From a virus, in the IMG/VR virus record IMGVR_UViG_3300005548_000002, positions 1 to 45,393 of that record: a stretch of 45,393 nucleotides of DNA; one strand, given 5' to 3'. The notes under the pieces are model-generated. The model did not search any database. It was given only the letters and a program-made list of their open reading frames with translations, and was not told the origin of the DNA. Positions 6,779 to 39,622 of this stretch are shown here, in pieces; within the stretch, counting starts at the first letter, position 1; each line of letters opens with the position of its first letter. The position numbers and the translations under genes are program-made.

Positions 6779-6781
6779 GCC

Positions 6782-23076: not shown

Positions 23077-23225
23077 TCGTCCTCGTCGCGGTCCTCGCTG
23101 TCGGCTGCATCCTCGTCGGGATGGGCATCGAGGCATGGCTCGGCGGTGCTCATACCGGGTCGCTCGAACACGAAGTCTGGATGTTGGAACTGGAGATCCA
23201 GCGCTTGAAGCGGGGCAAGCTGTGA
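23073..23225 (+). CDS. 50-aa membrane peptide
   Basis: ATGA overlap with the upstream gene. TM segment 'MIVLVAVLAVGCILVGMGI'. Confidence 0.35.
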   Translation: MIVLVAVLAVGCILVGMGIEAWLGGAHTGSLEHEVWMLELEIQRLKRGKL

Positions 23226-23692
23226 TCGCCGCCCCCACCGTCGACCGCTTCATGTCCAAGGTCGTCTGGAACGGCGACGAGGACGAATGCTGGACGTGGG
23301 AGGGCGGCACCGGCTCACACGGCTACGGGCAGATCAGCCTCGGCCGGAAGCAGCGCTTGGCCCACCGCGTCTCTTACGAATTGTTCAAAGGGGAAATCCC
23401 CCACGGCTTGGTCGTCGACCACCTTTGCCGCACCCCACGCTGCGTGAACCCTTCTCATCTGGAAGCGGTGACGCAAGGAGAGAACTGCTTGCGGGGCGTC
23501 GGCGCCTGCGCATCTAACGCTCGCAAGACCCACTGCGTTCGCGGCCATGAGTTCACCCCTGAGACGACCTACATCGTCCCTGCGACTGGTCACCGCACTT
23601 GCACCGTCTGCCGTGATGCCCGGAAGGCACGTTGGGACGCCATGCGTAAGTCCGAAATCGAAAACGCCCGACTGAAACGAGAGGGGAAATGA
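23222..23692 (+). CDS. HNH homing-type endonuclease (HNH_3-like), paralogue of 8359..8808
   Basis: 'RFMSKV...CWTWEGG....GYGQIS....RLAHRVSYE' and 'DHLCR.P.CVNP.HLE.VT..EN'. GTG start overlaps the upstream TGA. Confidence 0.8.
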   Translation: MIAAPTVDRFMSKVVWNGDEDECWTWEGGTGSHGYGQISLGRKQRLAHRVSYELFKGEIPHGLVVDHLCRTPRCVNPSHLEAVTQGENCLRGVGACASNARKTHCVRGHEFTPETTYIVPATGHRTCTVCRDARKARWDAMRKSEIENARLKREGK

Positions 23693-23850: not shown

Positions 23851-24029
23851 TGGCCAAGGACCTCCTACAGGACTTCGAGGCCCGGGTGGACCTCAACAAC
23901 TTCGACCCCGCCCTGATCCCGTTGCAGAACGACGCCCTCAAGAGGGTCAAGGAGGCACGGGACAACGGCACCGAAGAGGACATCCGCGATGCCGTGAGGG
24001 TCGCCAAAGAGTTGGGAGCCCTTCCGTGA
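23850..24029 (+). CDS. Hypothetical protein
   Basis: The ATG shares one base with the upstream TGA. 59 aa. Confidence 0.45.
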   Translation: MAKDLLQDFEARVDLNNFDPALIPLQNDALKRVKEARDNGTEEDIRDAVRVAKELGALP

Positions 24030-24889
24030 GCGAGACCTACACCGTCCGTGACGTACGCGAGGGGAAGGTGAAGCCCAACCCTCACGGCGGCGGCAACCTC
24101 CAGGCCTTCTACGTGGACTTCGTACGCCCTGACGGCAAACTGGAAATGGGCGTCTACTGGCAGCGCAAGGAGGGCAACGCCCCGCAGCCGGAGGAATCTG
24201 TCTTCGGAGACATCACCGAAGGTGACTACGGCCCTCGCTTCAAGCAGGCGAAAGGTGGTCCTTCACACAACGAATCTTCCACGGGCAATGCTCCGGGGTC
24301 GTCCAGCGGCAGGACTCCGGGTTCTGGACCCGGCAACGGTGGTTCGAATCCATCCCCCGGAACTAACGGGACGGACTGGGAGGTCAGGAACGCCGAAATC
24401 CGCAGGCAGCACTCGCAGGAGATGAGTGTTCGGGTCCATGGCTACGTCGGTGCCTTCTCCGCTGAGCTAAATCAGGCGGGGATCTCGGACCTCACGAAAT
24501 CGAGTATCGCCGTTCTCGCCGACTGGTTCGACCAGGACGCCATAGCCGCCGGCCAGAAGGCGAGTCAGGGCGCAGCATCGACGAGTGGCTCACCACACTC
24601 GTCGCCTCCTCCCCAGGGTGCTGCCCCTGACTCGTTTTCAGCCGGGGAAGAACACCAATGGCTGGAAAACCTCCTGATCCAGGGAGGGGCATCAACCTAC
24701 GGCGCAGGGAAGCTCGCCAACTTCGCATTGGAGGAGTTGAGCCCGGAGAACCTCAAGAAATGCGAGGCCCTCCTGAGCAACCTGGACTCCCAGGTCGAAG
24801 GCCGTGAACGGCTCGAAACGAGCTACACGAAGGCCAAGGGTGAACCGGTCCCGCAGGTCGACCCCATCGACGACGACCTTCTGTTCTGA
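24026..24889 (+). CDS. SSB-like protein candidate (N-terminal domain, Gly/Ser/Pro linker, acidic C-terminal tip)
   Basis: 287 aa. The C-terminus 'DPIDDDLLF' resembles the SSB 'DDDIPF' tip, and the middle is low-complexity. Confidence 0.35.
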   Translation: MSETYTVRDVREGKVKPNPHGGGNLQAFYVDFVRPDGKLEMGVYWQRKEGNAPQPEESVFGDITEGDYGPRFKQAKGGPSHNESSTGNAPGSSSGRTPGSGPGNGGSNPSPGTNGTDWEVRNAEIRRQHSQEMSVRVHGYVGAFSAELNQAGISDLTKSSIAVLADWFDQDAIAAGQKASQGAASTSGSPHSSPPPQGAAPDSFSAGEEHQWLENLLIQGGASTYGAGKLANFALEELSPENLKKCEALLSNLDSQVEGRERLETSYTKAKGEPVPQVDPIDDDLLF

Positions 24890-25948: not shown

Positions 25949-26310
25949 CGCAGCGCGACCGCATCCTCCGCGCGCTCGAGCTCGCCGGCCCCAAAGGGGT
26001 TCGCTCAGACGCCTTCATCAAAGACTTCATGCCCCGAGCAGCAGCCCGCGTACAGGAGTTGAAAGACGAGGGCTACGACATCACGTCGGAGCGTGAGGGA
26101 AAGTTTTGCCGCTGGACTCTTAACGTCGGAAGCAGCACCGAAGGTCGGGACCAGGCTGAACCGGGCGGCACCTATCAGCCAGTCGATGCGACCTCCGGTG
26201 TTGCTTCGGGCGTTGAAGCCCTGGTGCCTTCCTCGTCTCCCCAGTCTCCCGGGGAAAGCACCACGGGCTCCGCCCGGTCTTCGATGTACGAGACGTGGGT
26301 GGAGGACTGA
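25945..26310 (+). CDS. Winged-helix DNA-binding protein candidate
   Basis: 'RDRILRALELAGPKGVRSDAF...ARVQELKDEGYDI'. Confidence 0.45.
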   Translation: MTQRDRILRALELAGPKGVRSDAFIKDFMPRAAARVQELKDEGYDITSEREGKFCRWTLNVGSSTEGRDQAEPGGTYQPVDATSGVASGVEALVPSSSPQSPGESTTGSARSSMYETWVED

Positions 26311-26891
26311 TGGCAGTCTCCAAACGGCTCCGCTACGAGGTTATGCGCCGGGACGGTTTCCGCTGCCGCTACTGCGGGTTCTCGGCCAGTGAGACCGAAC
26401 TTCAGGTCGATCACGTCCAGCCGATCGCCCTAGGCGGCGGCGATGAGCCGGAGAACTTGGTCACGTCCTGCGCTGATTGCAACGCCGGGAAGTCGGCGAG
26501 CAGTCCCGACCAGGCGATTGTCGAGAGCGTAGCTGACGATTCGTTGCGTTGGGCCAAGGCACTAGAGGAAGCCGCGGCGATCAAAGCGGCTGAGCGAGCG
26601 AAACAAACCCGGTACACCAAGGCCATCGATAAAGCATGGTCGGCGTGGACAAACGGCGCCGACGAACCGCTTCCGCGTCCGCGAGACTGGAAGCAGTCGC
26701 TTGAACAATTCCGTAACTCCGGCCTAGACCAGAAGACTGCCCTTCACATGGTCGATGTGACCATGAACCGACAGGGCCTCCTCAATAACAAGGCTTGGAA
26801 GTACTTCTGCGGTTGCTGCTGGAACGTGATCCGCGAGCAGCAGGCAATCGCTGCGGCATTGATCGAGCGCGACGAGGCAGGGCAGGAGTGA
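26310..26891 (+). CDS. HNH endonuclease (classic HNH/HNHc)
   Basis: 'RDGFRCRYCG......LQVDHVQP.ALGG...PENLVTSCADCNAGK'. Confidence 0.8.
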   Translation: MAVSKRLRYEVMRRDGFRCRYCGFSASETELQVDHVQPIALGGGDEPENLVTSCADCNAGKSASSPDQAIVESVADDSLRWAKALEEAAAIKAAERAKQTRYTKAIDKAWSAWTNGADEPLPRPRDWKQSLEQFRNSGLDQKTALHMVDVTMNRQGLLNNKAWKYFCGCCWNVIREQQAIAAALIERDEAGQE

Positions 26892-27248
26892 ATGTGCCCC
26901 GACGACTTCTACGCGCCCCCGGCGTTTCAGTTCTACCCAACCGACTTCCTCTCGGATGCCCCGGTGCTGGCGATGACGCTGGAGGAGCGCGGCGCCTACA
27001 TCACCCTGCTCTGCATCGCTTGGACGGAGAACGGTCTGCCCGCCGATCACAAACGACTTGCGCGCGTCCTGAATCTCACGCCCCGGAAGTTTGCAGGGGT
27101 CTGGGACGCGCTCGAGGGCTGCTGGGAAATGACCGACGACGGAAGGCTGGTGAGTCCACGCATGGAGAAGGTCCGCGAGGAAGCAAAGGCCAAAAGCTCA
27201 GCCGCCTCCAAGGCTGGCAAGGCCGGTGCGAAGGCAAGGTGGTCGTAA
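26892..27248 (+). CDS. DUF1376 (YdaU-like) protein, replication-associated
   Basis: 'FQFYPTDFLSD..V..MTLEERGAYITLLC.AW..GLP.D' signature. Confidence 0.65.
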   Translation: MCPDDFYAPPAFQFYPTDFLSDAPVLAMTLEERGAYITLLCIAWTENGLPADHKRLARVLNLTPRKFAGVWDALEGCWEMTDDGRLVSPRMEKVREEAKAKSSAASKAGKAGAKARWS

Positions 27249-27273
27249 TGCGGTCGCTATGCGGTCGCTATGG
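27248..27273. repeat. 11-bp tandem repeat ATGCGGTCGCT, about 2.4 copies (iteron-like)
   Basis: Copies at 27248..27258 and 27259..27269, then a partial ATGG. Followed by CGTAC repeats, C7-TAA-C7 and a hairpin. Confidence 0.6.
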
Positions 27274-27366
27274 CAAACGCCTGGCGAACAGATGGCTCTC
27301 CGTACTCCGGTCTTCGTACTTCGTACCTACCCCCCCTAACCCCCCCGACTGCGTCAGGGGGGAATC

Positions 27367-27636
27367 GTGAGTGTCGATCGGGCAACGAGGGTTGCCAACG
27401 GCTCCCGTCGCAAGCGAGACCTCGCAGCCGTTGGCATCGAGCGTCGAGCAGTTCCGGAGGTCGAGGCGACCCGCGAGGAACGCGAAGCATGGGTTGCCCG
27501 CCACCTCCCCGGAGAGAACCACTACTGCGTCACCTCGGCCCGCATCCGGCTTCATGCCGCCGGCCGACCCGTCAACGCCGAGACCGTCCGGGAGTGGCTC
27601 CGGGGCCGCGGCTGGCTGAAGGAGCAGAACTCATGA
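27367..27636 (+). CDS. Hypothetical protein
   Basis: GTG start, 89 aa. Confidence 0.45.
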   Translation: MSVDRATRVANGSRRKRDLAAVGIERRAVPEVEATREEREAWVARHLPGENHYCVTSARIRLHAAGRPVNAETVREWLRGRGWLKEQNS

Positions 27637-27992
27637 GCGTCACCCGCGAGCAACCGCTCGAAGCGCTGGAGCGCGCCAACTACGTCCGCCTCCACCGCGC
27701 CGAGTTGAAACGCCAGGTCAAGCGCGGGGAGGTCACGGTCTCCTCGGTGCTCTCGGGGGAGATCCCGGACTGGCTGGAGCGCATGGCGGTCTACGAGCTC
27801 ATCGACGCCATCCCGCAGATCCGCAAGAGGACCATCGCCCGCATCCTCGCCGAGGTCGGGAACCTCTCCTTCAGCCGCAACGTGGGGATGCTCACCGTCC
27901 GCCAGAGGAACCTCCTCGTCGCCTACGTCGAGGCCTTCGAGAACCGGGCGAAGAAGAGGGCCCGCACCAAGTTCGAAAGGGGAGTGCGATGA
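27633..27992 (+). CDS. Actinobacterial-type integration host factor (mIHF)-like protein
   Basis: 'LERANYVRLHRAELKRQVKRGEVTVSSVL' followed by 'IPQIRKRTIARILAEVGNLSFSRNVGMLTVRQRNLL'. This matches the mIHF architecture. Confidence 0.55.
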   Translation: MSVTREQPLEALERANYVRLHRAELKRQVKRGEVTVSSVLSGEIPDWLERMAVYELIDAIPQIRKRTIARILAEVGNLSFSRNVGMLTVRQRNLLVAYVEAFENRAKKRARTKFERGVR

Positions 27993-28264
27993 GAACCTGG
28001 GAGTTCGAAGGTTGGGAAGAGCGCCTTCGGCCTTTGGAGGGTTCGAGGGGTTCCGGAGTCAAGGCCGGAAAGCCAGGGATTGGCTACTTCTACCGATCCG
28101 GCTACTACCCCGCCTGCTCGAAGCATGGGTCCATGAACTGCGTGAAGGGCCACGGGTCTGACGGGAGCTACTGGCGGTGCCTCGTCGAGGGCTGCAACAT
28201 TGGCGTCAAATGGGCCGGTCTCCTGCTCACCCGTGAGCCGGTCACCTGGTGGGAGGGCGACTGA
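27989..28264 (+). CDS. Hypothetical Cys-rich protein
   Basis: ATGA overlap with the upstream gene. 91 aa. Confidence 0.45.
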   Translation: MRTWEFEGWEERLRPLEGSRGSGVKAGKPGIGYFYRSGYYPACSKHGSMNCVKGHGSDGSYWRCLVEGCNIGVKWAGLLLTREPVTWWEGD

Positions 28265-28527
28265 CTGTGTTCTGGAGAAGGAAGTCCCGGCTTTCCGCGG
28301 AGGGTGTCGAGTCCGTTCTGATCACGCAGCAGAGGAAAATCGACGCCCTTGGCCAGCGCGTCCGAGCGCTGGAGCCGCCCCCTGAAGAGCCCTGGGAAAA
28401 GACGGCCGCGGAAATCGTAGATCTCATCGCCCTGCGTCACGGCTCCGGTGGCGCCAACCACCCCAAGGTCAAGGCGCTCTACCGCCTCGGTGACGAAGCA
28501 GCCGCTCTCCTCAAGGAGCAAGCATGA
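28249..28527 (+). CDS. Hypothetical protein
   Basis: GTG start. Alternative GTG at 28267. Confidence 0.4.
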   Translation: MGGRLTVFWRRKSRLSAEGVESVLITQQRKIDALGQRVRALEPPPEEPWEKTAAEIVDLIALRHGSGGANHPKVKALYRLGDEAAALLKEQA

Positions 28528-28742
28528 ACTCAACCAAGGGCTATGCCAACGATTGGATCGTCGATTCGAGTCTCTTCGATGAGCCCGACTGGAAACCACT
28601 CCTCAAATATCTGGCGCTGCTCGAAGAGGAACCGGATGGCTGGATGTTCATGGAGGGCTACACGAATGGCTGCCGCAACTACAAGCACAAGTTGACGCGC
28701 GAGGGTCTGATGCTGACGCAGGAAGGGAGCGTCTACCGATGA
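28524..28742 (+). CDS. Hypothetical protein
   Basis: ATGA overlap with the upstream gene. 72 aa. Confidence 0.45.
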   Translation: MNSTKGYANDWIVDSSLFDEPDWKPLLKYLALLEEEPDGWMFMEGYTNGCRNYKHKLTREGLMLTQEGSVYR

Positions 28743-28957
28743 GCCACGAATGGAAGACCGCCATGGTCGAAGGGCCGGTGACCGAAGCCGAGAAGGCGAA
28801 GGCACGTCTTGGTGAGGCCGTCGAGATCCTCGCGGAAGCCCTCTATGCCCTGGAAGAGAACAAACATCGATTCCTCCCGACCTCCCACGAAGGCGAGGCC
28901 GCCGAACGGGCACTTGCTAGGTCGAGGCGTTTCCTTGCGCAGGAGCCGCCTCGATGA
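28739..28957 (+). CDS. Hypothetical protein
   Basis: ATGA overlap with the upstream gene. 72 aa. Confidence 0.45.
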   Translation: MSHEWKTAMVEGPVTEAEKAKARLGEAVEILAEALYALEENKHRFLPTSHEGEAAERALARSRRFLAQEPPR

Positions 28958-29022
28958 ACGACCCGATCATCAGCCTCGAGGAAGCAGCCGAGCAGACTCC
29001 TTGGAGCAAGACGACGCCATGA
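28954..29022 (+). CDS. 22-aa micro-ORF resembling the first helix of an excisionase-type HTH
   Basis: MNDPIISLEEAAEQTPWSKTTP. ATGA overlaps at both ends. Confidence 0.25.
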   Translation: MNDPIISLEEAAEQTPWSKTTP

Positions 29023-29219
29023 GCACGGTCACGCAACTGGAGCCTTGGGTCCCCCTCACCGAGCTCGCGAACCACTGCGATTGCTCAGTCCGCTTCCTCA
29101 AGTACCGGGTTGCCGAAGGGATGCCCTCGGCCATCGTCTGCGGCAAGCGGAAGGTTCAACTGCGGGCGGCAATAGATTGGCTCGAAAAGGAGGGCCACAT
29201 CGTGAGGAGTGCTGCCTGA
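29019..29219 (+). CDS. xis: Excisionase / MerR-like HTH protein
   Basis: 'VPLTELANHCDCSVRFLKYRVAEGMP....GKRKV.L..AIDWL'. Directly upstream of int and overlapping it. Confidence 0.55.
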   Translation: MSTVTQLEPWVPLTELANHCDCSVRFLKYRVAEGMPSAIVCGKRKVQLRAAIDWLEKEGHIVRSAA

Positions 29220-30250
29220 TGGCGATTCGCAAAGTCAAGACCAAGAAGCTCGGCATCCGCTACGGGGTCCGGGTGCATGTCGGCGACGGCAAATACGAGA
29301 TGCTCGGGACCTTCCCGTCGAAGGCCGCCGCCAAGGAGGTCGAAGCGAAGTGGATGTTGCGGACGCGAGGGCGCCAGCGGCGGACGGGGAAAGACTGGGC
29401 CGATTTCTACCTGGAGGGCTACGAGGAACGAGTCAAGCGCTCGAGCTACCTCACCGCCTGCACCGCGATCAACTGCTGGCTGAAGACGTTCGGCAGTCGA
29501 ACCCTCGCCAGCATCGAACCGACTGAGGCGGAGACCTGGGCGCGAGCAAATCGCTGGGCGGTGCCGCCCGTCGTGACGATGCTGAACAACGCAGTCAAGA
29601 AAGACGCTCTCGACCGCAACCCTTTCGTCGGCCTGTCAAGTCGCAGCCAGGGTCGAAGGTTCAACGAGCCGTTAAGCGTGGCCGACCTTGAGCGCCTGGC
29701 CGCCGCCGCCGAGAAACATCACGGGTCCATGTTCAAGGCTTTCGTCCTCTTCACGGCGTACACGGGCATGAGGGTGGGGGAGGTCTTCGCGCTCAAGTGG
29801 GAAGACATCGATTTCACCGAGGGGAAGATCCTCGTCCGTCGCCGTCTCTATCGCTCTGAACTGGATCTGCCGAAGGGAAACAAGACGCGGGAGATCGCTC
29901 TGTTCCCTGAGGCCAGGGACGCCATCGCCGCGCTCGACCGCGAGACGGCATGGGTCTTCCTGGCCAAGCGGGGTGGCCAACTGGCGCAATCGACGCTGAA
30001 TCACTACTGGCAGAAGATCGTCGCGACGTTCGGTCGGGAGATCGATCCCCACGAGCTACGGCACTTCTGCGGCCATCATCTCTACGTCACCAAGGGGGTC
30101 CCCGAGCGCATCGTCGCCGCCCAGCTAGGCCACAACGACGGCGGCAAGTTGGTGCGGGAGCTCTACGGTCACGGAGACCACGGCGCGATCGATGAACTGA
30201 AGCGTCTCTACGGCGAGAACGTGGTCCCCTTCGAGAGGAAAGCCTCGTGA
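29219..30250 (+). CDS. int: Tyrosine integrase
   Basis: 343 aa. 'YTGMRVGE' (Arg), 'HELRHFCGH', 'LGHNDG', 'LYGHG' (Tyr). The N-terminal arm-binding-like 'GIRYGVRV' block is present. Confidence 0.85.
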   Translation: MAIRKVKTKKLGIRYGVRVHVGDGKYEMLGTFPSKAAAKEVEAKWMLRTRGRQRRTGKDWADFYLEGYEERVKRSSYLTACTAINCWLKTFGSRTLASIEPTEAETWARANRWAVPPVVTMLNNAVKKDALDRNPFVGLSSRSQGRRFNEPLSVADLERLAAAAEKHHGSMFKAFVLFTAYTGMRVGEVFALKWEDIDFTEGKILVRRRLYRSELDLPKGNKTREIALFPEARDAIAALDRETAWVFLAKRGGQLAQSTLNHYWQKIVATFGREIDPHELRHFCGHHLYVTKGVPERIVAAQLGHNDGGKLVRELYGHGDHGAIDELKRLYGENVVPFERKAS

Positions 30251-30449
30251 AGGCGACACTTCCTAGACAGAATGGGCACCTCACTGGCTTTGTAGAGCCA
30301 AGTGGCAACAATCCGCCCCATCCACTTTCACAGGCATGCAGGCGTATTGCCCCCCGTGAACAGGGATGCACCGCCAGGCACGGGAGACGACTCCCTAGAC
30401 ATTTGCGAGACATTCGGCAACGGCCGGATAGACAGCCGGGGCAGCTTCG
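30251..30449. other. attP candidate region
   Basis: Non-coding gap of about 200 bp 3' of int. Direct CCTAGACA repeats at 30262..30269 and 30394..30401. A tRNA-3'-end-like string AATCCGCCCCATCCAC at 30310..30325. Confidence 0.3.
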
Positions 30450-30857
30450 ATGAAGGCCTCGGTCTATCTCGCCTACAAAGGCGACAAGCTGCTCTACGTC
30501 GGGATCACCGGCACGGGGACCAAGCGCCTGTCTCAGCATCGGCGGAACAGCGAGTGGTGGCTCAAGGCCGATCGCATCGAACTCGAGCACTACCCGACGC
30601 GCTCGCGGGCGATGGCGCGAGAGGCCGACCTGATCGAAGAGAGGAAGCCACGCTTCAACAAGAAGCCTGGCCATCGACGCTGTCGCGAGGATCTCATGTC
30701 GCTCGACGAGCTCTACGCCGGAATGTCTGTCTGGCCTAAGGAGCGCCTTCTCAAATGGGCTGAAAAGGGAAAGCTGCCGGTCGCCGACTGGATCGAAGGC
30801 GCGCCCCTCTTCGACGAAGAAGAGATTCTCAGTTGGGTCAGAGGTGAGGCCTCGTGA
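30450..30857 (+). CDS. GIY-YIG nuclease with C-terminal HTH-like region
   Basis: 'VYLAYKGDKLLYVGIT....KRLSQH' and 'E..LI...KPRFN'. Confidence 0.7.
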   Translation: MKASVYLAYKGDKLLYVGITGTGTKRLSQHRRNSEWWLKADRIELEHYPTRSRAMAREADLIEERKPRFNKKPGHRRCREDLMSLDELYAGMSVWPKERLLKWAEKGKLPVADWIEGAPLFDEEEILSWVRGEAS

Positions 30858-31039
30858 ATCCCCGGAAGTTGGTAGAGCGCAAGCTTCCCAAGCTTGCCTG
30901 CGCGAGAACTGAGGCGAAGCCGACCCCCGTCTCACGCCTGGCAGAGCGCCGATCTGACGTAGGGGTTCGCCTCGGTTACCCACGTTTCGTCTCTTTTAGT
31001 CACAGCGCTGTTCGGGAAACGTTCGGGGAATCGCTGTGA
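30854..31039 (+). CDS. Doubtful ORF (may be a regulatory spacer)
   Basis: GTGA overlaps at both ends, but third-position GC is low. Contains the 19-bp palindrome at 30879..30897. Confidence 0.25.
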   Translation: MNPRKLVERKLPKLACARTEAKPTPVSRLAERRSDVGVRLGYPRFVSFSHSAVRETFGESL

Positions 31040-31158
31040 ATACCAGCGACCGCTACGGCCACACCGACGACGACCTGGCCCGGGAGCGGATCAAGAAGCT
31101 CTTCGAGCAGCCGACCGAACTGCGGCCGGTGGAAGACCAGGAGGCCGCGAATGGCTGA
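31036..31158 (+). CDS. 40-aa acidic peptide
   Basis: GTG start. Overlaps the next gene by 8 nt. Confidence 0.3.
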   Translation: MNTSDRYGHTDDDLARERIKKLFEQPTELRPVEDQEAANG

Positions 31159-31417
31159 GCGGATCGACTTCACGAAGCTGGAGGCCATCTATGCCTACGA
31201 CACCGGCTCTCGCGAATCAGGCATCAAGGATGAGGCTCTGCGGAGCCGCCTTGTCGCTCAGATCGACGCCATGCCAGACGACGCATTTCGCCTGGAATTC
31301 TCTCGCTGGCTCCGGGACAACCTTCTGTCGGAGCAGGCCCTTGCGCAGGGCTATGGCTTCGAGGACGTGATGTCGTTCGCTCGCTGGATCTTCGACGGCG
31401 ACTTTCGGAGCCCGTGA
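31151..31417 (+). CDS. Hypothetical protein
   Basis: 88 aa with high third-position GC. Confidence 0.5.
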   Translation: MAERIDFTKLEAIYAYDTGSRESGIKDEALRSRLVAQIDAMPDDAFRLEFSRWLRDNLLSEQALAQGYGFEDVMSFARWIFDGDFRSP

Positions 31418-31481
31418 GATGGCTGACGGCATCAAGATCGAGGTCGCGCCGAGTGCAACTTCTGAGCAGGAGGGCCGCTAG

Positions 31482-31730
31482 ATGGCTTTCCAGAGCCACG
31501 GTTCGCGCCGCGACAACCAATCTCCCCCATTGGATGTGACGCGCGGAACCCTGTTCCTTGCAGGGGGTTTCGCGCACGGCAGAGGATGTGGCCTGCCGAA
31601 CCTCCCAGGCACGGATCGCCCCGGTCGGGTCCGCCGACTCGTGGGCAATTTCGTGGGCGCCCGCTGTCGCATGATGTGCCGACGGGGCCCAACCCCCATG
31701 AACCACCCCCGTACTGAGGAGGAGCTTTGA
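31482..31730 (+). CDS. Doubtful Arg/Gly-rich ORF in a hairpin-rich segment
   Basis: Its stop overlaps the next start (TTGA), but the protein composition is odd. The region 31417..31726 could instead be structured RNA or DNA. Confidence 0.3.
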   Translation: MAFQSHGSRRDNQSPPLDVTRGTLFLAGGFAHGRGCGLPNLPGTDRPGRVRRLVGNFVGARCRMMCRRGPTPMNHPRTEEEL

Positions 31731-31978
31731 GCGAGCCAAGCCGCGAGGCTTACAAGGTCGGTCAGGAGTTGTACTACCTTCTCGAAAGAGCCGGGAAGCT
31801 CGTGAACCAAGACCGGGCCGCTGCGCAAATCGTTGATGGCTGGGTGCGCAACACGGTCCAGCCGATCATTGACGAACGGGAAGCGGCCGTCTCACGGCAG
31901 TTCGAGCTTGAAGAAGGCTGGCGCGAACGTCTCGGCCGATTCCTTCGTCGTCTCTCGCGGCTCGTGGAGGAATCATGA
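31727..31978 (+). CDS. Hypothetical protein
   Basis: TTG start after GAGGAGGA. 83 aa. Confidence 0.5.
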   Translation: MSEPSREAYKVGQELYYLLERAGKLVNQDRAAAQIVDGWVRNTVQPIIDEREAAVSRQFELEEGWRERLGRFLRRLSRLVEES

Positions 31979-32388
31979 CCCCCCGTCCCCCTCGGTTCCC
32001 CACTGAAAGCAAAAACACGACGAAGGAGAACAACGATGTTCGAAGTGAGCACCGAGGAAGTCGCGCGTCTTTTCGCGGACGCTCATGCCTACGCCCAGAA
32101 CGGGTTCTTCGACGAGGCGTCAATGACGGCGGAGCAGGCCCAGGAGATGTGGGAGGAGATTCGGCCACCCGATTCCGAGGAGCAGCCCGCATAAGCCGTC
32201 CCCCTCGGTTCCCGAAAAGGAAGGAGGCGTGGCCTGAGAACCAGAACGATCTCCTAGGCAAGCTCCAGGCGTCCTTCGAACGGGACTGCGAATGCGGTCA
32301 CGCCCTGGCGGATCACCGTTCGCGTTCATCCAACTGTGAAGCGGCCGGCTGCGAATGCGAGCTGTACGAACCGGAGCACGTCGCGTGA
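31975..32388 (+). CDS. Cys/His-rich small protein gene carrying an in-frame 213-bp insert flanked by direct repeats
   Basis: ATGA overlap with the upstream gene. Codons 10..80 look like out-of-frame filler. The 3' part (32214..32388, 'CECGH...CEAAGCEC') has no start codon of its own. Confidence 0.4.
   Translation: MTPRPPRFPTESKNTTKENNDVRSEHRGSRASFRGRSCLRPERVLRRGVNDGGAGPGDVGGDSATRFRGAARISRPPRFPKRKEAWPENQNDLLGKLQASFERDCECGHALADHRSRSSNCEAAGCECELYEPEHVA
31983..32000 (+). repeat. 18-bp direct repeat, copy 1 (CCGTCCCCCTCGGTTCCC)
   Basis: Identical to 32196..32213. The offset is 213 bp. Confidence 0.9.
32036..32194 (+). CDS. 52-aa acidic protein encoded inside the 213-bp insert
   Basis: AAGGAGA RBS 7 nt upstream of the ATG. 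MFEVSTEEVARLFADAHAYAQNGFFDEASMTAEQAQEMWEEIRPPDSEEQPA. The stop lies 1 nt before repeat copy 2. Confidence 0.5.
   Translation: MFEVSTEEVARLFADAHAYAQNGFFDEASMTAEQAQEMWEEIRPPDSEEQPA
32196..32213 (+). repeat. 18-bp direct repeat, copy 2
   Basis: Identical to 31983..32000. Confidence 0.9.
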
Positions 32389-32594
32389 ACGCCCCCGCGG
32401 CCAACCGTCTGCGTCTCGCCCTCCTCCGTAGCGGCCCGACCGTCTTCGAGCACGAAGAGACGCCCCTCACCTGTAAACGAGGCCACGTCCTCGAGGGGGA
32501 GAACCTCGGAGTCAAGCCCTCCGGGAAGCAGTACTGCCGTCGGTGCGAAATCGAGCGCGGCCGTGAACGTCGAGCCCACAGGAAGGAGGCGTGA
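32385..32594 (+). CDS. Small zinc-ribbon protein
   Basis: GTGA overlap with the upstream gene. 'CKRGH.....N.........YCRRC', similar to the C-terminal module of the HNH_3 genes. Confidence 0.45.
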   Translation: MNAPAANRLRLALLRSGPTVFEHEETPLTCKRGHVLEGENLGVKPSGKQYCRRCEIERGRERRAHRKEA

Positions 32595-32866
32595 TGAGCA
32601 AGGTCGTGTTCCGTGACCGAAGCGGGCGGCGGCTGGAGCGAGGTGCCCGGGTCAAGAACGTTCGGATGCCTATGTTCTCCGGCACCTACAGCGTCGTGGC
32701 GCTCACCGAGTTCGACGGTCGCGCAAGCGTGGGCCTCTATCACGGACCGTTCGAGGAATACCAGCCGAACTTCTGCATCCCGTTCGTCCCCGCCGAACCG
32801 TCCGGTGACGGCTTCACCGCGCGCGACCTGGAACTCGTCGAAGAGAAAGCAGAGGCAACCTCATGA
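32591..32866 (+). CDS. Hypothetical protein
   Basis: GTGATG start. 91 aa. Confidence 0.45.
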   Translation: MMSKVVFRDRSGRRLERGARVKNVRMPMFSGTYSVVALTEFDGRASVGLYHGPFEEYQPNFCIPFVPAEPSGDGFTARDLELVEEKAEATS

Positions 32867-33144
32867 GCCCTGAACAGCAGTCAGGTAGCGAGAGGGTGGA
32901 GTACGCGTCTTGCAGTTGCGGCACGCCGAATTGCCCGGAGCTTGGCTGGCCCCACGAATGGGACCCGATCGCAGCGGGGGATAGCTGCTCCGCCTCGGTT
33001 CCTCCAGCGATCTTCACCTGCTCCATCGAGCAACTGAAGGCCGGCTGGCAACCGCCCGTCCACAAGGTGACGGAGCCTTACGTCCGCTGGGGATCGGGTT
33101 ACGGCTGCGTCGAGTGCGTCGAAGCGGAGTCCGGCGATGACTGA
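32863..33144 (+). CDS. Hypothetical Cys-rich protein
   Basis: ATGA overlap with the upstream gene. Its 3' end overlaps the tnpB start by 8 nt. Confidence 0.45.
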   Translation: MSPEQQSGSERVEYASCSCGTPNCPELGWPHEWDPIAAGDSCSASVPPAIFTCSIEQLKAGWQPPVHKVTEPYVRWGSGYGCVECVEAESGDD

Positions 33145-34336
33145 GCACACCGAGAGCAAGGTGAATCGGATTTACCGCTACAGGCTCTACCCGTCGCGCC
33201 GACAGGCGGCGGCGCTCGAGGCCCAACTCGCCTGGGCCTGCGATCTCTACAACGCGGCGCTCGAGCAGCGCCGCACCGCGTTCCGCGATTTCGGCGTCTC
33301 GGTGCGACTCAAGGATCAGCAGCACGAGCTGACCGCCCTGCGAGGTGACGGCCCGCAAATGAACTACGTCTGCCAGGAGATGGTCCTCCAGCGGTTGAAC
33401 CTCGCCTTCGAAGCGTTTTTCCGGCGCACGAGGAACGGCGAGAGGCCGGGCTTCCCTCGATTCAGAGCAAAATCCCGGTTCAACACGCTCGCCTGGCGCA
33501 GGCGCCAGGGCGGGGCAGCGATCGTCAACGACCGCCTGCGCATCCAAGGCGTCGGCCACCTCAAGGTCAAATGGCATCGCGACCTCCCGAGTGACCCCAA
33601 GCAGACGCGAATCACTCGCAAGAACGGCCGCTGGTACGCCGCGTTCACCGTGGAGGTCGAGCGTCAGCCGCTCACCCCTACGGGTCGTGAAATCGGCGTC
33701 GACCTGGGCGTCCGGCAGTTCGCCACGCTCTCCGATGGTTCACATGTCGTCGGTCCGCGTCCTGGCCGAGTAGCGGCCCCCGCGATCCGGCGGGCCCAGC
33801 GTAAGGTCGCCCGTCGCCACAGAGGTAGTCACCGCCGCCGCAGGGCCGTCGCTGAACTTGCACGCCGTCGCGAGCGGGAGGCGAACCGCCGGCTCGATGC
33901 CGCCCATAAGGCTGCGAAGGGCTTGGTTAATGACTTCGACCTGATCGCCGTCGAGGATCTCCGCCCCGCCAACATGGTCCGGGGCAACCGCGGTCTCGCC
34001 CGCGAAATCAGCGACCAGGGCTGGTCCACCTTCTTGCAGTGCCTCGAAGACAAGGCTGAAAGCGCCGGTCGCCGAGTAGTCCGCGTCAACCCCCGGAACA
34101 CGTCACGTTGCTGCTTCGAATGCGGTGCCGTCGATCGTGACTCCCGCAAGGGGCCGCGCTTCGTCTGCACGACGTGCGGCCACACGGATGACGCTGACGT
34201 AAACGCCGCCAAGAACATCTTGGCCTTGGCCCGGACGGGGCCGTCAGGCGCCAACGCGAATCTAGTTCTCGCGTTGCCTGAGAAGCCGCAGCAGCGGAGT
34301 CGTCACTTCGGCTCAGGAGCAAAGGGGATCGCATGA
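33137..34336 (+). CDS. tnpB: TnpB (IS200/IS605-family OrfB, RuvC-type RNA-guided nuclease)
   Basis: 'RIYRYRLYPS' N-terminus. 'GVDLG' (Asp), 'IAVEDL' (Glu), CxxC...CxxC zinc ribbon, 'DADVNAAKNI' (Asp). 399 aa. No adjacent tnpA. Confidence 0.85.
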   Translation: MTEHTESKVNRIYRYRLYPSRRQAAALEAQLAWACDLYNAALEQRRTAFRDFGVSVRLKDQQHELTALRGDGPQMNYVCQEMVLQRLNLAFEAFFRRTRNGERPGFPRFRAKSRFNTLAWRRRQGGAAIVNDRLRIQGVGHLKVKWHRDLPSDPKQTRITRKNGRWYAAFTVEVERQPLTPTGREIGVDLGVRQFATLSDGSHVVGPRPGRVAAPAIRRAQRKVARRHRGSHRRRRAVAELARRREREANRRLDAAHKAAKGLVNDFDLIAVEDLRPANMVRGNRGLAREISDQGWSTFLQCLEDKAESAGRRVVRVNPRNTSRCCFECGAVDRDSRKGPRFVCTTCGHTDDADVNAAKNILALARTGPSGANANLVLALPEKPQQRSRHFGSGAKGIA

Positions 34337-34340
34337 AGAC
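34200..34340 (+). ncRNA. Candidate omega RNA (reRNA) scaffold overlapping the tnpB 3' end
   Basis: Two abutting hairpins at 34252..34276 (perfect 8-bp stem) and 34277..34317 (6+3 bp). A/T-ending codons are locally enriched. The position matches where omega RNAs lie in characterised TnpB elements. The ends are not defined. Confidence 0.35.
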
Positions 34341-34671
34341 CCGCATCTGGTCAGACGAGGCCCTGGCCAAGAGAGCCGAAGGCTGCCGAGTCTGCGGGAG
34401 GACCGACCGCGTCGAGCTTGCCCACGTCACGGGCCGTATCCACGATCGTCCCCGCACTCCGGGCTCCAAGACGGTCTACGTCGAGCCTGAGTCCGTGGTG
34501 CCCCTCTGCGGCCCTGCGGTGGACCCTGGGACCTGTCACCACGCCCACGACTCGCATCGGCTGGATCTGTTGCCGTACCTCCATCTCGAGGAGCAGATTC
34601 GCGCCGTCGAAGACGCCGGCTCCATAGGCCTAGCCCTCCAGCGGATCAGTCCCGAGAAGGCAGCCGCATGA
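34333..34671 (+). CDS. His-Me finger (HNH-like) protein candidate
   Basis: 'CRVCG......ELAHV.GR', 'VVPLCGP' and 'CHHAHD'. ATGA overlap with tnpB. Confidence 0.45.
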   Translation: MKTRIWSDEALAKRAEGCRVCGRTDRVELAHVTGRIHDRPRTPGSKTVYVEPESVVPLCGPAVDPGTCHHAHDSHRLDLLPYLHLEEQIRAVEDAGSIGLALQRISPEKAAA

Positions 34672-35078
34672 ACTCTTCAGAGAGACCAAGACGAGACGAG
34701 AGAGAGGCAGCCATGAGCACCTGCACTGAAACGCGCTACCCGGAGCACGAGAAGTTGTCGGAGGTCAGCGCGGAGTCCCAGACCATCGGCGAGTTCCTTG
34801 ACCTGGGTCTCCCGCAGATGGGCATCGTCCTCTACGAAGAGCGCCCTTATGACTGCGAATGCTCGGCCTGCGACCGGGGCGAGGGTGAGTTTTCCAAGTG
34901 GCACTCCGACGAGGAGAGGGAGACCATCGTCAACGGCCGCGTCCAGCTTCGCAAGATGTTCCCGACCGGGCGCACGATTCAGCAGATTCTCGCCGCCTAT
35001 TTCGAGATCGACCAGGACCGCATCGACGCGGAGAAGGAGCAGATGCTTGCCGCCCTTCGAGGGGAGCCCCAGTCATGA
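34668..35078 (+). CDS. Hypothetical protein
   Basis: ATGA overlap with the upstream gene. Alternative start at ATG 34713 after GAGAGAGAGG. Confidence 0.5.
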   Translation: MNSSERPRRDEREAAMSTCTETRYPEHEKLSEVSAESQTIGEFLDLGLPQMGIVLYEERPYDCECSACDRGEGEFSKWHSDEERETIVNGRVQLRKMFPTGRTIQQILAAYFEIDQDRIDAEKEQMLAALRGEPQS

Positions 35079-35374
35079 ACCCCACCACCAGAGAAGAGGG
35101 TTGGCCGGTTCTGTACGTCCGAGAGGACCGCTTCCGGGGCGCAGTCGCTGGCTATCACGTTCAGGAGCGCGCAACCAAAGGCGGGGGTGAGCAGCAGACC
35201 TACCACCCCGAGTCGGCTCCCAACGTCTTGACGAAGGATGAGGCACGGCTGGTGACGACGATCGCAGCGGAGTACTACGGGACCCACGGGATGACTGGCG
35301 AGTTGGTGGCCACCGACGACATCCGCTCGTTCTTCGACCGACTCAAGAGCTGGGCCGAAGAGGAGGGGCACTAG
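35075..35374 (+). CDS. Hypothetical protein
   Basis: ATGA overlap with the upstream gene. 99 aa. Confidence 0.5.
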   Translation: MNPTTREEGWPVLYVREDRFRGAVAGYHVQERATKGGGEQQTYHPESAPNVLTKDEARLVTTIAAEYYGTHGMTGELVATDDIRSFFDRLKSWAEEEGH

Positions 35375-35872
35375 ATGGCGACCTATAAGGAGGAAGCTGT
35401 CTACGCCGCCGAGCGCGCTGGGCGGTTGGTCGACCCGACCTGCAACGTCTGCGGTGTCGACTACGTCAGCGACTACTCGGGGCCGTGCCAAGAGCCGGGC
35501 TGCCGAGGGACCGTCGATATCTGGCCGGACTCGATCGCTCGCGCCGCCCTCGACGCAGCCGAGCCCTTCATCCGAGAGGCGGCCCGCAAGGAGATAGAGG
35601 ACCGGCTACTGAGTGACGAGGCGGTCGATGCTTTCTTCGTCGCGTTCGGCAATCCGACCGATCCCGAAGAGTGGGAGAGCCGCGAGGAGATGGCGGCCGA
35701 ACGGCAGGAAATTCGCAAGGCCCTCCGCGCCGCCCTCGCCACCCTGTCCCCATCCGAGGACACGACCGAGGAATGCAACTGCGGCGTCGAGAAGGAGCGT
35801 TCTCTTCGGCATAGCCGCTTCTGCCCGCTCTACGGTGTTCCCGCTGAGGATAAGGAGCCAATCGATGGCTGA
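35375..35872 (+). CDS. Hypothetical protein with C-terminal CxC..H..FCP knuckle
   Basis: 165 aa. 'CNCGVEKERSLRHSRFCPLY'. Ends with 'EPIDG'. Confidence 0.5.
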   Translation: MATYKEEAVYAAERAGRLVDPTCNVCGVDYVSDYSGPCQEPGCRGTVDIWPDSIARAALDAAEPFIREAARKEIEDRLLSDEAVDAFFVAFGNPTDPEEWESREEMAAERQEIRKALRAALATLSPSEDTTEECNCGVEKERSLRHSRFCPLYGVPAEDKEPIDG

Positions 35873-36245
35873 GTCTCACTGCACCTGCCGGTACGCCGTG
35901 GCGACCTACAGCACGCTCCACGAACGCTGGTGCCCGCTCTGGAAGCCCGGCCCAGAAGATACGCCCATGGCATCCGAGGGATCGGGTGCGCCCCTACCTG
36001 AGGCCGCGTGTGAACGGTGCGGGGGCGAGCGGTGGGGCGATCCTGCCGAGCCGGTGGCCAATTCAAACGGCCAGCGATATGTCGAGTGCCTGAAGTGCGG
36101 GCACCGGAAAATTCCACGCCGAAACCCGACCGAGAGCAATGCGGTGACGGACGGTCCACTGGCGTTTCCGGGCACCCACGAACTGCCGGAGTTCGGCGAA
36201 CTGCCTACCCCGAAGCCCCTCACCGAGGACCCAATCGATGCATGA
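35865..36245 (+). CDS. Hypothetical protein with N-terminal CxC..H..WCP knuckle
   Basis: 'CTCRYAVATYSTLHERWCPLW'. Ends with 'PTPKPLTEDPIDA', which is encoded by 34-bp repeat copy A. Confidence 0.5.
   Translation: MAESHCTCRYAVATYSTLHERWCPLWKPGPEDTPMASEGSGAPLPEAACERCGGERWGDPAEPVANSNGQRYVECLKCGHRKIPRRNPTESNAVTDGPLAFPGTHELPEFGELPTPKPLTEDPIDA
36203..36236 (+). repeat. 34-bp perfect direct repeat, copy A (GCCTACCCCGAAGCCCCTCACCGAGGACCCAATC)
   Basis: Identical to 38514..38547. The offset is 2311 bp. Confidence 0.9.
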
Positions 36246-36705
36246 CCTGACCGACGACGACCGTGCACGGCTGGAGCAAATCGCCCGGCAGATCGAGTAC
36301 ACGATCAAGGACGCCGACTGGCCCGAGTTCGAGGAGAACGATCCAGCCGACCCGATGCGAGACGTCCGCTTTCTCCGCAAGCTGGCCCAGCAGTCCTCTG
36401 GGGACCAGGGGCTACGGAGTGAGGACGCAATCGAGGCGGCAGCAGCCTGGCTGAGAGAAGCCGAGCAGGCGCACCCCGGCCCGATGGGAGCGCCGTACGC
36501 CCAGCTTCAACCCCCGCAGCGAAAGGAGCCGTACCGCAAACGCGCCCGCTCGCTGCTCGCCTTCGTCCGCCCAGCTCTCGAAGAGGAGATGCGGAAGCGC
36601 GTCCGCGCCATCCCCAAGGAAGACGGCATCGCGGCCGGGTTTCTTCGTCGCCGAACCGTCGAAGCAGCGCTCTCCGCCCTCACCCACGACAAGCAGGAGG
36701 ACTGA
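36238..36705 (+). CDS. Hypothetical protein
   Basis: 155 aa. The start lies inside the upstream gene end (ATGCATGA). Confidence 0.5.
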   Translation: MHDLTDDDRARLEQIARQIEYTIKDADWPEFEENDPADPMRDVRFLRKLAQQSSGDQGLRSEDAIEAAAAWLREAEQAHPGPMGAPYAQLQPPQRKEPYRKRARSLLAFVRPALEEEMRKRVRAIPKEDGIAAGFLRRRTVEAALSALTHDKQED

Positions 36706-36706
36706 G

Positions 36707-37033
36707 ATGCCTGACAAGGACACGCAATGGCCTGAGGTCGTGCTGTTCCGTCACGAGGCAAAGACGCGACCCAAGTCGATTGCCCAGAAGCACGTCGTGG
36801 CAGACGGCGAGAAGTTCGAACGCTATCTACCGATCTCGTCCATCAGGGCAGCGCTGCTGAGCGATGAGGCTGTTGAAGCAGCGGCGCGCGCTCCGTTCGA
36901 CCACCACGGCTCCGACGAATACTGGGACGTGCTTGAAGACATGGAGCGCGTGGCGATCCGCGAGGACGCCCGGCTGATCCTCGAAGCCGCCCTGAACCGG
37001 GCCTTCCCAGACACCAACGGAGAGCACCGATGA
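36707..37033 (+). CDS. Hypothetical protein
   Basis: 108 aa. The 'LLSDEAVEAA' block also occurs in 35375..35872. Confidence 0.5.
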   Translation: MPDKDTQWPEVVLFRHEAKTRPKSIAQKHVVADGEKFERYLPISSIRAALLSDEAVEAAARAPFDHHGSDEYWDVLEDMERVAIREDARLILEAALNRAFPDTNGEHR

Positions 37034-37407
37034 GCCGTCAGAGAATCCTCGTCTGTGGAAGCCGCGACTGGAGCAACGAGAAAGTGATTCGCGACCGGCT
37101 CAACGAATCCCTGAGCGCGATCGTCATCCACGGCGGAGCAGACGGCGCAGACAAGATGGCGGCGAAAGCTGCCTATGCCCTCTCGATGCACTCCGCCGAA
37201 ATGAGACCACTCTGGGGCCAGTTCGGCAAGCAAGCCGGCTACCTCCGCAACTGCGCCATGCTCGACCTTGAGCCGGATCTCGTCATCGCTTTCAGCACTG
37301 GCTCTCGTGGCACTCAGATGACCATCGACGAAGCCCGCAAGCGCGGCATCCCGGTCGAGATCCACGGCACGGAACTGGTCATCCGGGACAAAGGAGAGCA
37401 CCGATGA
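37030..37407 (+). CDS. DUF2493 / SLOG-family (YspA-like) nucleotide-binding protein
   Basis: 'ILVCGSRDW', 'VIHGGADGADK' and 'VIAF..GS.GT' Rossmann-like signature. Confidence 0.6.
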   Translation: MSRQRILVCGSRDWSNEKVIRDRLNESLSAIVIHGGADGADKMAAKAAYALSMHSAEMRPLWGQFGKQAGYLRNCAMLDLEPDLVIAFSTGSRGTQMTIDEARKRGIPVEIHGTELVIRDKGEHR

Positions 37408-37592
37408 GTGACCGGCGACGCGAAATCATCGAATGGGTCAATCGCGAGCTGCGGAAAGGCCCGACTGATCTCGAAGCGTGGGAGGCGTTCTACCTGCTCA
37501 GTCTTCCCCCGATCGTCGAGGACCGTCACGAGTACAACCGGATTCGTCGTCGCCTCTTGGACGAAGGCGAAACCTGTTGCTGGGAGCGCTGA
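37404..37592 (+). CDS. Hypothetical protein
   Basis: ATGA overlap with the upstream gene. 62 aa. Confidence 0.45.
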   Translation: MSDRRREIIEWVNRELRKGPTDLEAWEAFYLLSLPPIVEDRHEYNRIRRRLLDEGETCCWER

Positions 37593-37621
37593 ACGGTGGC
37601 CGAAAGAAAGAGAGAGCAGCA

Positions 37622-38314: not shown

Positions 38315-38401
38315 CGGTGCATAATTCAGATGCGCTTCCTTTGCTGATCGTCGGTTCTCGATTCCAGCGCGGCCCGTGGCCCGAGCGTTTGCGGTAGATG
38401 C

Positions 38402-38584
38402 ATGCCTGATTCCCTTCCCCGCACCGCGCAAGAACAGCTCGCCTATTGGCTTGAGTTCGGCGTCGACAAGTTCGTCTACGTCATCAAGGCGAAGGATGAT
38501 CCGCCGATCAAGGGCCTACCCCGAAGCCCCTCACCGAGGACCCAATCAACCCTGCGCGCCAAGAAGGCCGCTTCTACCTCATAG
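38402..38584 (+). CDS. ORF that runs out of frame into 34-bp repeat copy B (truncated or frameshifted)
   Basis: The first 38 codons look coding ('...LAYWLEFGVDKFVYVIKAKDDPPIKG'). The tail 'LPRSPSPRTQS...' is the wrong frame of the repeat. Confidence 0.3.
   Translation: MPDSLPRTAQEQLAYWLEFGVDKFVYVIKAKDDPPIKGLPRSPSPRTQSTLRAKKAASTS
38514..38547 (+). repeat. 34-bp perfect direct repeat, copy B
   Basis: Identical to 36203..36236. Confidence 0.9.
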
Positions 38585-38591
38585 GACCAGC

Positions 38592-39566: not shown

Positions 39567-39622
39567 ATATCCCACGATGGATCACAAGCAGACACCGAGT
39601 AGAAGGGCTTGGGATCGATCTC

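Follow-up and report, generated by a model that had tools for sequence, protein, structure and literature searches.

Introduction

The closest counterparts of the locus analysed here have been described in mycobacteriophages. In LRRHood, genes 43-46 form a 1.35-kb four-gene block between 29-bp direct repeats, one at the very 3′ terminus of a gene and the other ahead of the gene that follows; the repeat is present only once in phage Cali. In Island3, gp68 is an ORFan of 85 amino acids (aa) whose last 18 residues, and about 50 bp of DNA, duplicate the terminal part of the gene before it. For both cases the authors invoked recombination at short sequences and left gain versus loss undecided (Pope et al. 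2011, PLoS One, PMC3029335). Here we describe a similar arrangement in the uncultured virus genome IMGVR_UViG_3300005548_000002 of IMG/VR, analysed over its whole length of 45,393 bases (hereafter, the window). In this genome an 18-bp direct repeat brackets a 52-aa open reading frame (ORF), g52, near the start of a small Cys/His-rich gene, and the best-supported reading, which we regard as probable, is that of a small gene cassette bounded by 18 duplicated base pairs of a 66-aa Cys/His gene.

The likeness to LRRHood and Island3 is considerable: one or a few small, mostly ORFan genes stand between identical direct repeats of short length, each placed where a flanking gene ends or begins, removal of one unit restores a tidy junction, and no transposase is present. 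The window also holds a 16-bp repeat pair, which resembles Island3 gp67/gp68 in that the last codons of the upstream gene are copied onto the inserted gene, and a 34-bp pair with a 2311-bp unit, which mirrors LRRHood. The one unusual detail is the location of the 18-bp pair, which falls within codons 1-9 of the host gene rather than at a 3′ end and thereby deprives that gene of its own start context. As further differences, the repeats here measure 16-18 bp as against 29-50 bp in LRRHood and Island3, the window locus has no counterpart found to the single-copy sister genome that Cali provides for LRRHood, and several brackets occur in one genome, with one more in each of three relatives.

In T4-type phages, PeSL cassettes are built on a repeated promoter/stem-loop, at which recombination shuffles single ORFan genes and gives mini-circles (Arbiol et al. 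2010, Genome Biol Evol, PMC2839356). As there, the genes concerned here are small non-essential ORFans in hyperplastic early regions, bounded by direct repeats between which recombination can delete, insert or circularise one gene. PeSL, however, is one promoter and stem-loop motif found at many junctions, whereas each repeat pair in the window is unique, exists in two copies, and has neither a promoter or terminator consensus nor a significant fold. Short conserved boundary (linker) sequences have likewise been proposed for module exchange among lambdoid phages (refs 21-22 in PMC3029335). The window repeats share with such linkers the form of short identical sequences at gene boundaries that could serve as crossover points, but linkers would be expected in many genomes, and the window 18-mer was found in no other phage sequence searched. 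The morons of lambdoid phages are a further system for comparison. Such genes are described as having a promoter on one side and a terminator on the other (PMC3029335). The window unit resembles a moron as an extra gene between genes adjacent in the inferred ancestral order; it was rejected as one because it has no promoter or terminator in a sigma-70 consensus scan. It also lies within a coding sequence, in a translationally coupled gene array.

An 18-bp repeat pair brackets a 52-aa ORF within a Cys/His gene

The preliminary description of this locus gave an 18-mer at 31983 and 32196 with an offset of 213 bp, or 71 codons, and the pair proved exact: CCGTCCCCCTCGGTTCCC stands at both sites with 18/18 identity, and no third copy was found in the window within 3 mismatches on either strand. 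The ATG at 31975 is, as stated there, ATGA-coupled to the upstream gene g83, and GGAGG lies 4 nt ahead of it. Deletion of one repeat unit gives a 66-aa gene, MTPRPPRFPKRKEAWPENQ..., with a good Shine-Dalgarno (SD) sequence and ATGA coupling to g83; the predicted empty-site junction, 31982 joined to 32196, reads ...ATGACCCCCCGTCCCCCTCGGTTCCCGAAAAGG.... The SD motif AAGGAGA ahead of g52 was correctly recognised, but its spacer is 6 nt and not 7. The TAA of g52 ends 1 nt ahead of the 3′ repeat copy (Table 1). Both the cassette and g52 are single-copy, and neither a transposase nor terminal inverted repeats accompany them.

Exact direct repeats of at least 18 nt arose genome-wide in 6 of 100 order-3 Markov simulations, and 5 exact repeats with a length of 16 nt or more and copies less than 3 kb apart were observed against 0.14 expected. 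A chance origin of the 18-bp pair is unlikely because its copies are so closely spaced. The sigma-70 consensus scan of 30200-39600 returned 0 promoter-like sites on both strands and no terminator-like site on the + strand, Rfam gave no match over 31700-32700 even at E ≤ 1, and the RNA folds at the repeats were not significant (z 0.49 and -0.02), with no attC-like structure. Elsewhere in the locus, a perfect 11-bp inverted repeat at 31941-31951 and 32017-32027 (TCCTTCGTCGT, ACGACGAAGGA) joins the 3′-terminal part of g83 to the sequence around the g52 SD and forms the outer stem of the minimum free energy fold, which has -37.1 kcal/mol and a z of -1.76, with 10 of 200 shuffled sequences folding as well. 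This stem might link g52 translation to upstream ribosome traffic.

Codon-position G+C separates the reading frames. In neighbouring genes it is approximately 0.60-0.73, 0.41-0.57 and 0.69-0.80 at the three positions. Over 32036-32191 the g52 frame gives a coding-like 0.69/0.40/0.79, whereas the frame of the 137-aa ORF that reads from the host start through the insert into the tail gives 0.79/0.68/0.40, unlike coding sequence; after the 3′ repeat, the same 137-aa frame is coding-like (0.67/0.46/0.74). The insert thus codes in the g52 frame and the tail in that of the host, which bears out the earlier claim that the ORF at 32036..32194, with its own SD, uses a frame different from that of the host. 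An AlphaFold (AF2) model of g52 is a helix-loop-helix with a predicted local distance difference test (pLDDT) score of 75, and in the model of the 137-aa ORF (pLDDT about 49 overall) the insert part shows no predicted secondary structure, with scores in the 40s-50s; as both models are single-sequence, we treat this evidence as weak. No homologue of g52 was found among 5.8 billion proteins.

The cassette had also been described as inserted in frame. The frame does hold, insertion is our interpretation of a locus for which no empty site was found (see below), and the join itself could readily arise by chance: the -1 frame of real genes in this genome is stop-free across 71 codons in 55% of cases, so that about 1 in 5 random same-orientation insertions would give an open in-frame read-through, and the join is therefore no evidence for a selected 137-aa fusion. 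Two canonical in-frame starts are available to the tail, ATG 31975 and a GTG at 32149 inside the insert, at which public gene calls begin (the 79-aa P0001). The earlier statement that the tail has no start codon overlooked this GTG, although it is a poor start because the AGGAG ahead of it is only 2 nt upstream. At 32191 an in-frame ATA of the Cys/His frame overlaps the g52 TAA as ATAA, with GAGGAG 7 nt upstream (32178-32194), and one A-to-G change would turn it into a classic ATGA-coupled start, MSRPPRFP...; this ATA may be a former or weak restart site.

The interrupted gene belongs to a small family of short proteins

A word-indexed search with the 137-aa ORF matched the window's own gene call only, and an exhaustive HMMER search with the 63-aa tail recovered a small family with the motif DCECGH-x4-H-RSRSSNCE-x2-GC-x-CELYEP. 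Among its members, P0003 has 70 aa with the module at residues 32-67, preceded by an acidic helical N-terminus, P0007 is a stand-alone protein of 71 aa, and P0004, of 238 aa, carries the module C-terminally and shows that long N-terminal extensions are tolerated. A profile scan of GTDB species genomes added L083, a stand-alone ORF of about 62 aa from its first ATG, and gave one spurious match, L084, which was discarded; the Cys/His profile found nothing in IMG/VR. The alignment of P0007 with the restored 66-aa protein spans residues 17-62 of the latter and pairs NDLLGKLQASFE with HDLMGPLKASLE; P0007 is encoded by an ordinary small gene that overlaps its upstream neighbour, in small-gene arrays downstream of an integrase. 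The window keeps 10/10 of the family-invariant residues, PHROGs returned a weak match to a 59-position family (phrog_6114), and no solved structures were found for the module.

Relatives of the Cys/His module are few and in most cases encoded as stand-alone genes, with P0003 (70 aa), P0007 (71 aa) and L083 (about 62 aa) spanning 62-71 aa. The natural gene size is therefore about 60-70 aa, and the tidy 66-aa gene that the preliminary description obtained by removing one unit fits this range. That description had also named homologues of the full 137-aa ORF, conserved across the insert, as evidence that would speak against it, and we found no homologue conserved across the 71 insert codons. Besides this, P0004 (L018 1570-2286) joins three parts, namely an N-terminus like that of g108 (47% over 49 residues), a CERCGG motif like that of gene X (see below) and the Cys/His module, whose window counterparts are separate genes; g108 and g165 are paralogous (39% over 80 aa). 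Fusion and fission of small modules appears to be common in this group.

The 18-mer is unique and no empty site was found

The 18-mer has no exact match in IMG/VR. Among 241 million metagenome records it has 63 matches, each once per contig and with unrelated flanks, and many of them appear antisense to unrelated genes. In so large a database, about as many matches would be expected at random. The 18-mer is no shared regulatory motif, a possibility put forward earlier as an objection; it also lacks a third copy in the window. No empty site or cassette-free variant was found in IMG/VR, JGI metagenomes, GTDB genomes, the protein collection or Sequence Read Archive (SRA) contigs, and exact-protein look-ups of the flanking genes g83 and g69 returned the present arrangement only. 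The proposed search for the uninterrupted gene and for g52 in other contexts yielded stand-alone Cys/His relatives but neither an empty site nor g52 elsewhere. As no cassette-free genome was found, we infer, rather than demonstrate, the polarity of the event (gain versus loss).

Similar brackets recur in the window and in relatives

The preliminary description likened the locus to a 34-bp-repeat cassette further downstream and suggested a recurrent way of adding genes at gene boundaries. The common design was borne out and extends to a 16-bp pair and to three relatives; the recurrence therefore stands, but not its novelty, the pattern having already been published (PMC3029335). Removal of the 2311-bp unit between the 34-bp copies, which holds about six genes, restores the C-terminus of gene X with ATGA coupling to the gene at 38592. 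The 34-mer has no match in IMG/VR. The last ORF of this cassette (38402..38584) reads through the 3′ 34-mer in another frame, and Logan k=31 contigs break at both 34-mer copies. Nested in the 2311-bp unit is the bracket formed by the 16-bp repeat, in which GEHR and a stop codon end both g125 and its upstream gene, and MS begins both g125 and the next gene.

The relatives found through the terminase (45-74% identity) have almost none of the window's early genes. In the early regions fetched from three of them (L003, L006 and L009), perfectly matching short-range repeats of 16 nt or more occur exactly once per relative, against 0.04-0.08 expected. Together with the three brackets of the window, this makes six. 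In L009 the insert is a 65-aa acidic helical domain insertion with PIQEEGEA on both sides. In L006, three SD-containing junction copies stand at consecutive gene starts, and the bracketed segment, which has no start of its own after the repeat, seems to start at a GTG located in the last part of the gene before it. Bracket lengths vary (16, 18, 24 and 34 bp), the cassettes have no common sequence and the repeat pairs are unrelated. The repeats of most brackets include an SD, with or without the start codon, so that both neighbours of the junction keep a translation start; kept starts on both sides are what selection on random events would leave.

Source, assembly and genomic setting

The first 110 bases of the 45,393-base contig are repeated exactly at its end (1-110 = 45284-45393), an identity that marks it as a complete phage genome of 45,283 bp, either circular or terminally redundant; G+C is about 60-69% across the profiled region of 29-40 kb. 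The source is a temperate uncultured soil phage, with an integrase (Table 1) and an Xre-type helix-turn-helix repressor protein on the minus strand, and the locus lies in its mosaic early region. The large terminase has its nearest cultured relatives, at ≤33% identity, in Microbacterium and Arthrobacter phages. Several HNH and GIY-YIG nucleases and one TnpB are also encoded. The locus DNA (31400-32900) has no blastn match among 50,697 cultured-phage records, and tblastn with the concatenated neighbourhood against cultured phages found distant homologues of one 88-aa gene only, in Arthrobacter jumbo phages.

The sole public run found with the locus is SRR5451461, a rhizosphere metagenome. Two contigs match the window at 100%, one from the Logan assembly of this run (26164-36232) and one from JGI (29036-35194), the two being separate assemblies, possibly of the same underlying data. 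In the assembler contigs, depth is 12-14 and even over the region, no alternative joint was seen, and k=31 contigs pass both 18-bp copies unbranched. The perfect match in other assemblies and the even depth indicate that the structure is not one assembler's artefact. No public RNA-seq runs were found.

Several observations concern the surroundings. The 14-mer AGGAAGGAGGCGTG occurs at 32218-32231, 4 nt past the 3′ 18-mer, and at 32580-32593, 362 bp downstream in the SD region of a 90-aa gene, and encodes RKEA at both sites; the pair may be a further bracket, around the Cys/His tail and g69, or a chance match of SD-rich sequence. The 69-aa gene g69 (32385-32594) matches HNH families only in its C-terminal part (phrog_826 positions 163-208 of 281), a full-length phrog_826-type HNH member being encoded at 23135..23692, and may be an HNH remnant or mini-domain. 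The TnpB gene (33137-34336) has OrfB_IS605 and Cas12f1-like TNB domains without a TnpA, its element ends were not identified, and its start and stop overlap the adjoining genes, which makes it a member of the translationally coupled array. Further away, a tRNA gene at 24292-24362 (Rfam RF00005, 58.6 bits) lies within a mechanical 287-aa ORF (24026..24889) that is probably no gene.

Table 1. Positions of the bracketed locus, the other repeat brackets and the integrase (window numbering, except for the relatives L009, L006 and L003, which have their own)
Feature	Position	Strand	Remarks
Upstream 83-aa gene g83	31727..31978	+	TGA overlaps ATG 31975 as ATGA; codon-position G+C 0.72/0.41/0.69
Cys/His gene translation start	31966..31977	+	GGAGG 31966-31970, 4-nt spacer, ATG 31975
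18-bp repeat, 5′ copy	31983..32000	+	Host-gene codons 3-9, RPPRFP
Unique cassette interior, 195 bp	32001..32195	+	Beyond the repeat, no significant similarity to the tail; no terminal inverted repeats
SD and 52-aa ORFan g52	32023..32194	+	AAGGAGA 32023-32029, 6-nt spacer, g52 32036..32194 (TAA)
18-bp repeat, 3′ copy	32196..32213	+	
Rest of Cys/His gene	32214..32388	+	Module DCECGHALADHRSRSSNCEAAGCECELYEP with every family-invariant residue; weak phrog_6114 match
137-aa read-through ORF	31975..32388	+	Host start, insert in -1 frame of g52, then Cys/His tail
34-bp repeat, 5′ copy	36203..36236	+	Last codons of gene X (35865..36245)
34-bp repeat, 3′ copy	38514..38547	+	2311 bp downstream; gene X frame continues to ...TEDPINPARQEGRFYLIGPA and stop, whose TGA overlaps the ATG of a 73-aa gene at 38592
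16-bp repeat GGAGAGCACCGATGAG, 5′ copy	37019..37034	+	Last codons GEHR and stop, ATGA overlap, start MS
16-bp repeat GGAGAGCACCGATGAG, 3′ copy	37393..37408	+	374 bp downstream; pair brackets SLOG-family g125 (37030..37407)
L009, exact 24-mer, 195 bp spacing	2940-3158		In frame; interior codes in the host ORF's own frame
L006, 18-mer AGAAACGGAGGGCTGATG, 163 bp spacing	6447-7026		Third copy, 83% identity, at preceding gene start
L003, exact 16-mer (21-mer at 90%), 158 bp spacing			Brackets a small Cys-rich gene
Tyrosine integrase (Pfam Phage_integrase family)	29219..30250		1.7 kb upstream of the cassette

Discussion

The arrangement is best accounted for by a small gene cassette that entered a Cys/His gene with duplication of 18 bp of its target. 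The native gene would have encoded a 66-aa protein with a C-terminal Cys/His (zinc-type) module, starting at ATG 31975 and coupled to the upstream gene, and a 195-bp segment with an SD and g52 would now lie between host codons 9 and 10, with 18 bp of the target (codons 3-9) on both sides. Its most likely origin would be one recombination event between co-replicating phage genomes, on very short or no homology, in which 18 bp were copied twice. It may have proceeded by template switching whose return was staggered, or by a fragment or mini-circle integrating through a shared 18-mer. We propose that the product was tolerated because it is located at a gene boundary. As a consequence, g52 would be translated from its own SD, and the Cys/His module only as the 137-aa fusion from ATG 31975, unless it is poorly expressed. 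Judging from the sequence, the in-frame join can still let the module be translated from its original, well-placed start.

Several points weigh against this interpretation. Neither a cassette-free relative nor a contig-level variant occurs among the collections searched, which leaves gain versus an ancestral arrangement undecided, and g52, having no homologue, counts as a real gene on composition, SD and single-sequence fold only. The 11-bp inverted repeat hints that g83 and the insert may have coexisted for a while, with which a recent foreign insertion fits less well. Among candidate recombination enzymes of the genome we recognised an integrase, a RusA-like resolvase, TnpB and nucleases of the HNH and GIY-YIG types, but no single-strand-annealing recombinase. 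Finally, the single run with the locus, SRR5451461, was examined as assembler contigs rather than raw reads.

The polarity of the event is also at issue in an alternative that we consider unlikely, namely that ordinary homologous recombination at a conserved short boundary sequence joined two modules, each parental phage having had one 18-mer beside a different gene so that exchange united g52 with the Cys/His gene, or that a repeat-insert-repeat order (R-X-R) is ancestral and relatives lose X when the two repeats recombine, with no target duplication in either case. Pope et al. left the same alternative standing for LRRHood and Island3 (PMC3029335). Most repeats of the lineage span SD or start regions and could act as common linkers, the L006 repeat has its third copy, 83% identical, at the preceding gene start, and a common history is suggested by the 11 bp over which g83 and the g52 leader are complementary. 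The 18-mer, however, is absent elsewhere in the window, from the relatives and from IMG/VR, and its metagenome copies stand in unrelated contexts only; moreover, the 5′ copy falls within the first 9 codons of the very gene that resumes after the 3′ copy, as target duplication predicts. An autonomous or enzyme-driven mobile element (MITE-like, an integron-like cassette or homing-endonuclease cargo), for which the 18 bp would be a target-site duplication, could equally leave an exact duplication around an insert, and would suit a lineage in which the pattern recurs and a nuclease-rich genome (two HNH genes, one GIY-YIG gene and TnpB). We regard it as highly improbable: the duplications vary in length (16, 18, 24 and 34 bp), unlike the product of a fixed staggered cut, terminal inverted repeats are missing, no second copy of the cassette or g52 was found anywhere, no attC-like structure is present (folds z ~0), and the cassettes have no common sequence. 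On such grounds a transposon, a miniature inverted-repeat transposable element (MITE) and a mycobacteriophage mobile element (MPME) were each rejected, the unit being single-copy and without terminal inverted repeats and its bracket length not fixed. An integron cassette was likewise rejected, as there is no structured attC-like element and the sole integrase is a Phage_integrase-family recombinase (IntI-specific features lay outside the comparison). So was a self-splicing intron or intein, given no Rfam match, no Pfam match and an insert of 71 codons against at least about 130 aa for intein blocks.

The coding evidence bears on two further possibilities. If the 137-aa ORF were a real long-standing gene, g52 would be a shadow ORF and the 18-mer an internal duplication giving RPPRFP twice. 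This ORF is indeed open, has a good SD, is ATGA-coupled and belongs to a family that allows long N-terminal extensions (P0004, 238 aa), but we find the idea very unlikely, since codon-position G+C over the insert is wrong for its frame and right for g52, the insert has no homology and no AF2 secondary structure, and a stop-free -1 frame over 71 codons is usual in this genome (55% of windows of that length). Nor did the insert prove to be a diverged tandem copy of the Cys/His part, as stretches shared by eye (GAGAAC..AACGAT, ASF) had suggested: the local alignment score was 9 against a null mean of about 9.8. Conversely, g52 and the tail might be one gene, either expressed through a programmed -1 frameshift or a ribosomal bypass or broken in two by a frameshift error, given that the tail lies in the -1 frame of g52 without a good start of its own and that in P0003 an acidic helical N-terminus precedes the module. 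To this we give very little credence, because the g52 frame lacks an X XXY YYZ heptamer, no significant RNA structure was found, g52 is unlike the N-termini of P0003, P0004 and P0007, and the sequence is identical in three assemblies; g52 as the N-terminus of the same protein was rejected for its dissimilarity to those of the homologues and the missing slippery site. It is just as hard to credit that the repeat is a chance match, or the structure a chimera assembled from two strains. The locus does come from a metagenome, and an 18-mer pair arises genome-wide in about 6% of simulations, but this one combines a 213-bp spacing with a gene-start position, among short-range repeats well in excess of expectation (5 observed against 0.14), and k=31 contigs run unbranched through both copies at even depth, with two other assemblies identical.

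Returning to the cassette bounded by duplicated target sequence, its mechanism is not new, since the pattern has already been published for mycobacteriophages (PMC3029335). A bolder proposal, which we think quite unlikely, is that the lineage runs active cassette shuffling, in which small genes leave as mini-circles and re-enter through short repeats that usually hold an SD or start. If so, the R-X-R units would be mobile, reversible cassettes, and the 66-aa zinc-module gene would toggle between an intact and an interrupted or fused state; the system would be PeSL-like, with unique target-derived repeats in place of a common motif, and could be driven by a phage nuclease.

The locus offers a clean, apparently recent snapshot of single-ORFan gain or loss in phage early regions, in which the breakpoints can be read to the base and the interrupted gene is intact in all conserved residues. 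Most of the brackets duplicate a ribosome-binding or start region, which would supply a start signal to both neighbours. Together they add examples beyond the cultured actinobacteriophages and provide a search signature for recent gene insertions and deletions in metagenomic phages, namely gene junctions at which an exact direct repeat of 16-34 bp recurs within 3 kb.

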